DNA of 64,000 bases, from contig OZ336880.1 in the NCBI GenBank assembly GCA_965287045.1, positions 54,374,001-54,438,000 on the forward strand, written 5' to 3'. A program made the position numbers and the translations under genes. A model generated the notes under the pieces. It did no database searches, was not told where the DNA came from, and saw only the letters and a list, made by a program, of their open reading frames with translations. The stretch is from Carcharhinus amblyrhynchos (Eukaryota). The number at the start of each line of letters is the position of its first letter. Positions within the stretch are counted from its first letter, which is position 1. Below are positions 33,501 through 36,500 of the stretch, in pieces.

Positions 33501-36500
33501 TCTTTCCTGTTCCCGGGATCTTCCGATCTTCGGGCACAGTGAAAGCCCAGCAAGAATCGCTACTGGTCTTCCCAGAGACCAGGCATCATGGCCATGCTGA
33601 GGTTGGGGAAATAAGGGGTGGGGAGGGGCATTGAAGCACCCGTTCCCACCCAGGGTGTCAGAAGTAGTGCCAAGGGGCTGGAGCACAAGGGCTGTCATGA
33701 AGAGGGTCAAGAAAGGGGTCCCACTGGAATGCCCCGATGTGGATGATCTTTGTTGGGTTAGGTAAACATCCCTTCGATGAGGAGAGGGAAGTACCCGATG
33801 TCCATGAGAGAAGGAGGGGGTTCATACTTTCAATTAGAGATCAGGGCGCTTTTTAAAAATGGCTCCCAATCTCTGTGAGGCTGGACTGACTGGGTGTTTA
33901 GGCCCTGTCTCTCTGAGAACCAGGCAAAACTCACCATTCTCCCAAAAAATGACTAAATATGGGAAAATTGCGAACACACAGGTTTTCTCACCTGAAATTA
34001 CACTTACGGCATGATCTTACAGGCTCACCGCACTGGTCAAACAGCACAGTGAGCCAGTAAGATTGAGTGAGAGGTCAAAAATCAACAGGCCCTGTTTTGA
34101 CAGTGTAATCTGGGCATGAAGCTGAAAATGATATGTTTTACATATATAACATATACACATTTTTAAGACAATTACATAATGATTGAACCAAATATATATA
34201 TGTACACAATTCAACTATATGCAAGAACATGAACGTAAACTATGAATTACAATATCAACATCTACTTAAACGTCTACATAGACATAATCAGTCTGTCTGG
34301 ATGATGACAGTTCCTGGACAAATGTCTTCTTGCCTCAGAAATCTTCTCAGTCGTTCTTCTCTAAATTCTCACGAGCTTCCTCTCTCACTCAGTTACTGTC
34401 TCCAGTAAACTCTGCCAATGTCTTGTCTCTGCTTCAGGAGCACTAGAATCAGTAGAATCAGTTCTGCCTAAGGATTCTGGATTGGGGAGGACTTCCCTCC
34501 TTTGATGTGGAGCAGCCACCAACTGATCCATGTGCCTCCTCCAGACCCTCTCATCCTGGGTCTGTACAATATATGACAATGACCCCGACTGGGCCAACAT
34601 TGTCACTGGAACCCATCTCTCACCTGACATGTAGTTCCTCGTCAACATGGTTTTTCCCTTCCTGAAATTCCTTGGCTTGGAATACACGTCCCTTTGTGCC
34701 ATCTGACCTTCTGGTTCTTTGCTACCACTTTTCTCAGCTCTCCTGGCTGCATCAGTTCAAAGATGGTCCTCAATCTGTGACCAAACATCAAAGACGCTGG
34801 GAATCGATTCACTCATCTTCCAAGGAATCATCCCTTTGGGAAACCTTCAGTTTTAAGGACTGGACAAATCTTTCCGCCTGGTCTTTTGTTGCAGAGTGGT
34901 ACGGAGCTGATCTCACCTGTCGGAATCCTCAGTGGTACAAGTATTCCTAAAACTACTTCTCCACAAACTGTAGCCCGTTGTCACTCACCACTTATTTGTA
35001 CCACTGTTGTCACCCCTCCACCAATGGGAATGGCCTGAGGCTCCTTGGCAAAGGATCTATGTAAACTTTGCAGGTCTGGTGGAAGGTAAAATGCTGTTGG
35101 AGTGCTTGATATCCACTCAAAATGGCCAGAGGTAGCAACTATGAATTTGGTGTCTGCAGAGGTGACAACAGATCGACTCAACGAATTGTTTGCTTGATTT
35201 GGGAGTCTCAACATAAGAACATAAGAAATAGGAGCAGGAGTAGGCCATCTAGCCCTTCGAGCCTGCCCCGCCATTCAATAAGATCATGGCTGATCTGTCG
35301 TCCATGATCTTATTGAATGGCGGGGCAGGCTCGAAGGGCTAGATGGCCAACTCCTGCTCCTATTTCTTATGTTCTTATGTTGAGACTCCCAAATCAAGCA
35401 AACAATTCGTTGAGTCGATCTGTTGTCACCTCTGCAGACACCAAATTCATAATTGCTACCTCTGGCCATTTTGAGTGGATATCAAGCACTCCAACAGCAT
35501 TTTACCTTCCACCAGACCGGCAAAGTTTACATATATCCTTTGCCAAGGAGCCTCAGGCCATTCCCATTGGTGGAGGGGTGACAACAGTTGTACCTTCTGC
35601 ACTACAGTATATGATTCACAAGAACCTGCCTTCTCCTCGATCTGAAAGTTTATACTCGGCCACCAAAAATAGCTCCTAGCAATCTCCCTCATTTGCACCA
35701 CCGCCGGTTATCCTCAGTGCACTTGTTTCAGCACCTTCCCTCTTAATGTGCGAGGAATGACCATTATTCCCCACAATAGACGTCTGTCCGTTATGAACAA
35801 CTCCCACTTCATGGACAGATAGGGACACAAATTAGGCTGATTTCTCTGAATAATCGTCCCTTATAAGGCTAAATCCATTACATGGCTTTAAACTGGGTCG
35901 TTTTTTTTATGGCATTTCGTACTTAGGCTGTGGCACTGGTGCCTTATCATCTAGGTGACAATACATAATTTTCAAATGCCAATCAGGAACATCCATTCCT
36001 CCAGGAAGAGGCAGACTTGACAGAGCATCAACATTGCCATGCTTTTCTGATTGTCGATGCCATATATCATAGCAGTCCACTGGTAAAAGTAGTACACATC
36101 TTTGTAAGTGCTGCTGCCATGGATGGTACTCCATTATATGGCCTGAAAATGGGGGTGAGGGGCCTGTGATCACTTAATGGAACAAAATGCCAGCCGTAAA
36201 GGAAATGTGAGAATTTTTTCACCCCAAATACAATACTCAAACCTTCCTTCTTAACCTGGGCATATTTTTCCTGCGTTTGTCAAAGATCTTAACACAAAGG
36301 CAATACACGTAACAATACAGCCTTAACCCCATTAGGCAAGGCATCTTAAAGGCTAATTACAGTGTCAAATTCAGGTTAAAATGGGTTAGTACTGCTGACC
36401 TGCGTAAGGCTTGTTTTACCTCCCTAGTGTGCTTCTTCACACCCCGGGTCCAACTCCATGGTTGGCCTTTACCAAGCAGTCGGTGTAACAGTTTAATGGC

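Follow-up and report, generated by a model that had tools for sequence, protein, structure and literature searches.

How does a shark intron come to carry a long and nearly perfect palindrome, and does such a structure do anything for its host? In the window analyzed here, a stretch of 64,000 nucleotides from Carcharhinus amblyrhynchos (contig OZ336880.1 of assembly GCA_965287045.1, positions 54,374,001 to 54,438,000), a first-pass annotation made from the letters alone had described two inverted arms of about 292 bp, with about five mismatches and a 12-nt spacer. The palindrome is a real sequence feature. Its arms (34998-35289 and 35302-35593, 292 nt each) are 98% complementary and lie 12 nt apart, for a total of 596 bases, and both the coordinates and the five mismatches (35002/35589, 35057/35534, 35072/35519, 35139/35452 and 35242/35349) were borne out. 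The locus had been placed inside a CCDC148 intron, consistent with what we found: the intron (29692-39349, minus strand) has GT-AG boundaries and phase 0, and the exon upstream of it (39350-39556, minus strand) matches a CCDC148-like protein of sharks at 100% identity. The predicted RNA fold of 34960-35630 is strong (-587.5 kcal/mol, with a z-score of -53.9 relative to 20 shuffled sequences), in agreement with the suggestion that the CCDC148 pre-mRNA could form a duplex of about 290 bp. Elsewhere in the window we noted a 16-bp tandem repeat at 47768-47933 (10.4 copies, 90% matches).

The two arms have different histories: the right arm is original sequence, and the left arm is new. Most of the right arm (35382-35593, minus strand) is the integrase region of a decayed Gypsy-type pol remnant, recognized by six-frame reading, Pfam pieces and 69-83% identity to genomic copies, which spans 34830-36835 on the minus strand, has many stops and frameshifts, and is interrupted between 35382 and 34997. 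The Pfam pieces follow on that strand in the order RNase H (RT_RNaseH, 36148-36258, E 6e-7, above the gathering score), integrase zinc-binding domain (Integrase_H2C2, 35480-35707, E 8e-4, below it) and integrase core (rve, 34830-34991, E 8e-4, also below it); the putative protease stretch of the remnant gave no Pfam match. The remnant extends across the right arm and picks up again at 34997, and the 212 bp at 35382-35593 are collinear on both sides with other Gypsy copies and with a contig of a related species (X6, below). Ten genomic repeat matches span the right outer junction and none spans the left one. Other Gypsy copies put 34997 beside 35382, and in four of five pairs the gap between them is 0. 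Since the Gypsy sequence of the right arm is collinear and these two positions adjoin in other copies, 34998-35381 is inserted sequence.

The added DNA (384 bp) consists of a backward copy of the 212-bp target flank (34998-35209, plus strand), which is missing from the empty allele of X6, followed by 92 nt of antisense CR1 3' end with its tail pointing left (35210-35301, minus strand) and 80 nt of sense CR1 3' end (35302-35381, plus strand), whose tail of 8-nt repeats is joined to the original target. A longer, unfolded copy of the same 3' end, identified by sequence comparison at 51262-51519 (plus strand; 5' limit approximate), served as a natural reference. The 92-nt stump is 100% complementary to 51428-51519, and its inner 12 nt (35290-35301), which form the spacer, are simply the next CR1 bases, continuous with the CR1 of the left arm; the 80-nt stump is 99% identical to 51440-51519, with a single derived change at 35349. 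Gypsy sequence is found in the palindrome only because a CR1 landed in a Gypsy remnant. The earlier description of each arm as part CR1 and part Gypsy was correct as to the two components, but the arms are not two equivalent chimeras, the Gypsy part of the right one being the original sequence. The CR1 component comes from a family whose 16-nt 3' motif has 137,732 exact copies in the genome. All CR1 copies examined bear a periodic 8-nt tail, and it is from this tail and a likeness of motifs that we take the family to be CR1 rather than L2; a Pfam search with 60 residues of the ORF2 C-terminus only gave no match. An octamer microsatellite tail has been described at the 3' end of CR1, although the quoted avian unit differs from the shark unit (PMC8665684).

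We compared the locus with public contigs from four of 24 runs, namely X1 and X4, X5 (from organism A) and X6 (from organism B, a related species); X1 is possibly from the assembled sample itself, and X4 belongs to the same study as X1. The left junction is crossed by 35 nt in contigs of X1 and X4, and by 30 nt, one short of the bridging rule used, in a contig of X5. One X5 contig ends 30 nt into the left arm, another 30 nt into the right arm, and a further one begins exactly at the first base of the arm, a pattern that, in our reading, a 31-mer graph gives for a duplicated segment. In X6, a single 1355-nt contig joins 35380 to 34995 without CR1 and without the duplication, and thus represents an empty site. 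No contig among the matches listed for the four runs spans the centre junction; short-read contigs are blind to a flipped centre, since the flip is a reverse complement between identical arms. A check for presence across species had been suggested at the first pass, and it gave the left junction in X5 and the empty site in X6.

Insertion and duplication are present in organism A and absent in organism B, and the event therefore falls after the split from organism B and before that from organism A. The arms differ from each other at 5 of 292 positions (1.7%), and the flanks differ from X5 at 13 of 961 (1.4%) and from X6 at 20 of 1106 (1.8%). As these values are similar, the arms have drifted at about the flank rate. 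Among the matches listed, four derived changes fall in the right arm (as judged from X6 and the CR1 copy at 51428) and one in the left arm (from X4 and X5). With the mutation rate reported for the epaulette shark, 7e-10 per generation (PMC10587355), we arrive at an age on the scale of ten million generations; the interval is wide, and the rate is that of another species. The locus has likely decayed neutrally since insertion, and the suggestion that it might be a fragile site is weakened by the persistence of the palindrome across a species split. At 35068-35175, one 237-nt contig of X5 covering the whole arm carries five species-specific changes, four of them within 17 nt; these would amount to arm-to-arm conversion if they were common to both arms, at a depth of about 3 at which bubbles may have been collapsed.

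We searched the genome for similar structures as head-to-head pairs of the 16-nt CR1 motif, 10-200 nt apart, and found 62, plus 56 pairs of a second motif in an overlapping set. The raw count was rejected as evidence, since 62 is below the roughly 310 expected under random placement (tail-to-tail pairs, at 343, are near it). Seventy loci were examined (50 of the 62 from the first motif, together with 20 further loci taken from the 50 that were listed among the second motif's 56), and a locus was called mirrored if its palindrome extended at least 30 bp beyond the tail into the flank. Twenty-five of the 70 were mirrored, with flank copies of 32-406 bp and one of 1506 bp, and arm identities of 91-100%. 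The same flank follows both tails, base for base, and the flank copied varies among sister palindromes (SINE, LINE or unrecognized). The first motif's loci (20 of 50 mirrored) correspond to at least about 1 mirrored locus per 5,500 motif copies, or 1 per 5,289 when 21 loci are counted.

The geometry of these loci is regular. Of the 26 mirrored loci, that of the window included, 25 have a clean centre (L051 was dropped because it matched the reference poorly), and in these the stump lengths differ by 7-29 nt, with a mean of 15; none of 20,000 permutations was as tight, and the two lengths are coupled (Spearman 0.80). At loci without a mirrored flank the difference ranges from 0 to 187 nt (34 of 41 clean). 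With four centres set aside because they hold inserted bases, microhomology of at least 2 nt was found at 12 of 21 mirrored centres, where 16% would be expected (p 1.5e-5); the window's palindrome has 0 nt at its centre. Three fold points recur, each in two loci. At the 11 loci where it could be measured, the far junction lies -14 to +13 bp from the target site, a range covered by the target-site changes reported for ordinary LINE insertions (PMC4245944). An internal CR1 motif, about 200 nt further inside, gave 38 matches; among the 15 examined, seven are plain snap-back stumps ending within CR1, one reaches the flank, and the remainder look nested. The mirrored class thus grades into plain snap-back stumps. 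With a SINE-type 3' motif, one locus of 13 was mirrored (L115, G000:C12:8.85 Mb), showing the same fold-back at a SINE-type 3' end with about 55 bp of mirrored flank, and the process is therefore not confined to this CR1 family.

Several loci had features of their own. L063 (G000:C5:102.427 Mb) has the same build with 1.5-kb arms of 94% identity, and is the longest and among the oldest. In L030, L031, L044, L051, L073, L080 and L088, the mirrored tails differ by one 8-nt unit, which we read as slippage at copy-back or later. Loops shorter than 7 nt are absent among the 25 mirrored loci, and unmirrored pairs go down to 0-4 nt; this could stem from the geometry of the fold, from the loss of tighter palindromes, or from a bias in assembly. 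L016-L018, L024, L040, L042, L043, L094, L098, L102 and L104 are nested, with CR1 body following one tail, and we read them as CR1 inserted into CR1 in opposite orientation. Some tail-to-tail pairs are joined directly at their tails (e.g., G000:C1:57176333 and C2:119894827), a few of them small perfect palindromes, possibly through insertion into existing tails. Finally, at G000:C16:38096074-38096277 a piece of CR1 is repeated in tandem, as four copies of 46 bp that end in a fold-back, which looks like iterative template switching.

We consider it probable that the palindrome is a by-product of one CR1 insertion, through snap-back of the cDNA, copying via its own tail into the flank, and end-joining. 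The palindrome has features of a snap-back: 92- and 80-nt stumps of a 5'-truncated CR1, inverted around a 12-nt loop. Target-primed reverse transcription would have halted after about 92 nt; the 3' end of the cDNA would then have snapped back over the 12-nt loop, and a polymerase would have copied onward from it through the stump and 212 bp of flank, after which the extended end would have been joined without homology to the far side of the break, with no loss. These intermediates are deduced from end products, and a later fold-back returning exactly to the start would leave an identical sequence. Three observations run against this reading: the palindrome of the window has no microhomology at its centre, its loop orientation is opposite to that of a simple snap-back, and the mere number of head-to-head pairs does not exceed chance.

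Loop orientation was typed with 18 unfolded CR1 copies as references and covered 15 of 26 mirrored loci (L031 and L051 weakly typed; L060 typed later on one pair); the assignment of the original arm was carried over from a typing in which folded loci had been references for each other. The loop lies on the original side in 10 of the 15 and on the duplicated side in five; for the internal stumps the counts are six and one, and among typed loci overall the loop is continuous with the primed, original side in 16 of 22. All three typed loci with identical arms have the simple orientation, and arm identity is higher where the loop is on the original side, though not significantly so (p 0.10). In the window's palindrome the loop sits on the duplicated arm, which is the minority orientation, and one extra step beyond simple snap-back is therefore needed. 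In one route, a hairpin would have been sealed, and its opening on the cDNA strand would have preceded fill-in; in the other, the centre would have been inverted later. Our data fit both alike. For the former, folding, cleavage, fill-in and joining have been depicted at the opposite end of L1 breaks (PMC11702581); for the latter, template switching is described as able to invert a spacer (PMC8604942). A bolder proposal, to which we give a fairly low probability, is that the joining of CR1 5' ends in the shark germline may proceed via a hairpin end that is covalently closed and then cut open on one strand or the other, 30-400 bp or so into the flank, in the manner of flip/flop hairpin transfer.

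The event could instead have taken two steps, a CR1 insertion with a short inverted stump and, much later, a template switch at the hairpin that extended it into the flank. Substrates for this exist in the short snap-back stumps (seven of 15 internal-motif loci), and template switching between inverted repeats homogenizes arms and inverts spacers in yeast (PMC8604942). However, a near-exact return to the target site would be required at all 11 measurable loci without overwriting the far flank, insertion and duplication in the window both date to the interval between the same two splits, and some loci have arms that are 100% identical. We therefore regard two steps as unlikely, and prefer a single insertion with snap-back.

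The first-pass annotation had proposed that the locus could yield small RNAs against CR1 and Gypsy, and a selected hairpin-RNA gene, giving small RNAs or edited dsRNA against both, would suit the intronic position, the very stable predicted fold, the survival of the palindrome past a species split, and the 99-100% identity of the 80-bp CR1 part to young copies. Against this, arm divergence equals flank divergence, with nothing visibly keeping the duplex perfect; exact targets in Gypsy are few (9 of 384 21-mers from the Gypsy part of the arms match in one of the 10 closest Gypsy copies, and none in the other nine); and the flank content is arbitrary across sister loci. Seven matches to Rfam miRNA families all scored below the gathering score, and we took them as generic hairpin matches. 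The proposed silencing role thus found no support, and we judge a selected hairpin-RNA gene to be very improbable. An intronic duplex of this kind may well be edited by ADAR or diced by Dicer as a side effect. The palindrome is likely a recurring insertion accident and not a silencing device.

Two independent reverse-transcription events, whether by twin priming or by nested insertion, are hardly credible as the origin of the head-to-head pair. Of the 41 loci that lack a mirrored flank, many do look nested, with CR1 body after the tail, but independent events leave the flank duplication unexplained, so that the mirrored 212 bp largely refute them for the window, and in mirrored loci the stump lengths are tightly coupled and the tails share their flank base for base. 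Fold-back chimeras are a known long-read error and the centre junction is spanned by none of the matches listed, yet the artefact raised as an alternative at the first pass is almost certainly not the explanation and is largely ruled out by the five arm mismatches, the outer junction in X1, X4 and X5, and the precise rejoining at a target site that is empty in X6.

Snap-back, fold-back and head-to-head self-priming have already been described for R2, L1 and Penelope, respectively. Engineered R2 in human cells gives insertions with snap-back 5' junctions (PMC11371274), in which, as we propose for our locus, the cDNA 3' end self-primes before 5' joining, and the antisense copy is joined to the upstream target; in the window, copying would have proceeded through the 3' junction into the downstream flank, and the palindromes are fixed in the germline, unlike the R2 cases as described. 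For L1, fold-back inverted duplications or inversions of target DNA, of 52-220 bp, are reported in 0.3% of somatic insertions (PMC10191854). The L1 fold-backs (PMC10191854, PMC11702581 and its 2026 preprint version) resemble the route proposed here in a hairpin at the retrotransposition break, extension or cleavage, and end joining. In those accounts the short duplications sit on the 5' (reciprocal) end with the element not mirrored, and primed-end fold-backs are of chromosome scale; unlike this, the primed end in the window forms a local, inherited mirror that takes in the element. Penelope-like elements form head-to-head inverted pLTR insertions, with an inverted 5'-truncated copy and a palindromic junction read as self-priming (PMC3846280); they belong to another clade with another enzyme, the arrangement is routine in them and occurs about once in 5,000 here, and the mirrored host flank sets the CR1 loci apart from the elements as described in that paper. 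Yeast inverted repeats formed by template switching share the possible spacer inversion that the window orientation may require, but as described are short and not tied to a retrotransposon insertion site (PMC8604942). In the open-access literature, with supplements covered for PMC11702581 only, we found no description of germline CR1 palindromes with mirrored 3' flank, and a class of germline CR1 insertions with the primed end locally mirrored along with the element appears to be new.

The joining of the LINE 5' end and second-strand synthesis are described as still poorly resolved (PMC4760211), and dated, inherited CR1 fold-backs provide a direct test bed for them outside L1 and R2, in which loop size, microhomology, copy-back length and the two loop orientations can be read. 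The class is probably more interesting than the single locus, which is itself probably inconsequential. It indicates that a vertebrate germline makes near-perfect palindromes of 200-1000 bp with loops of 7-29 nt, some of which are kept for a long time. If the closed-hairpin reading were true, the inherited palindromes, numbering in the dozens, would be a fossil record of second-strand synthesis; the same process would be a steady source of near-perfect hairpins carrying the 3' end of an active LINE, and those in introns could feed small-RNA control of that LINE.
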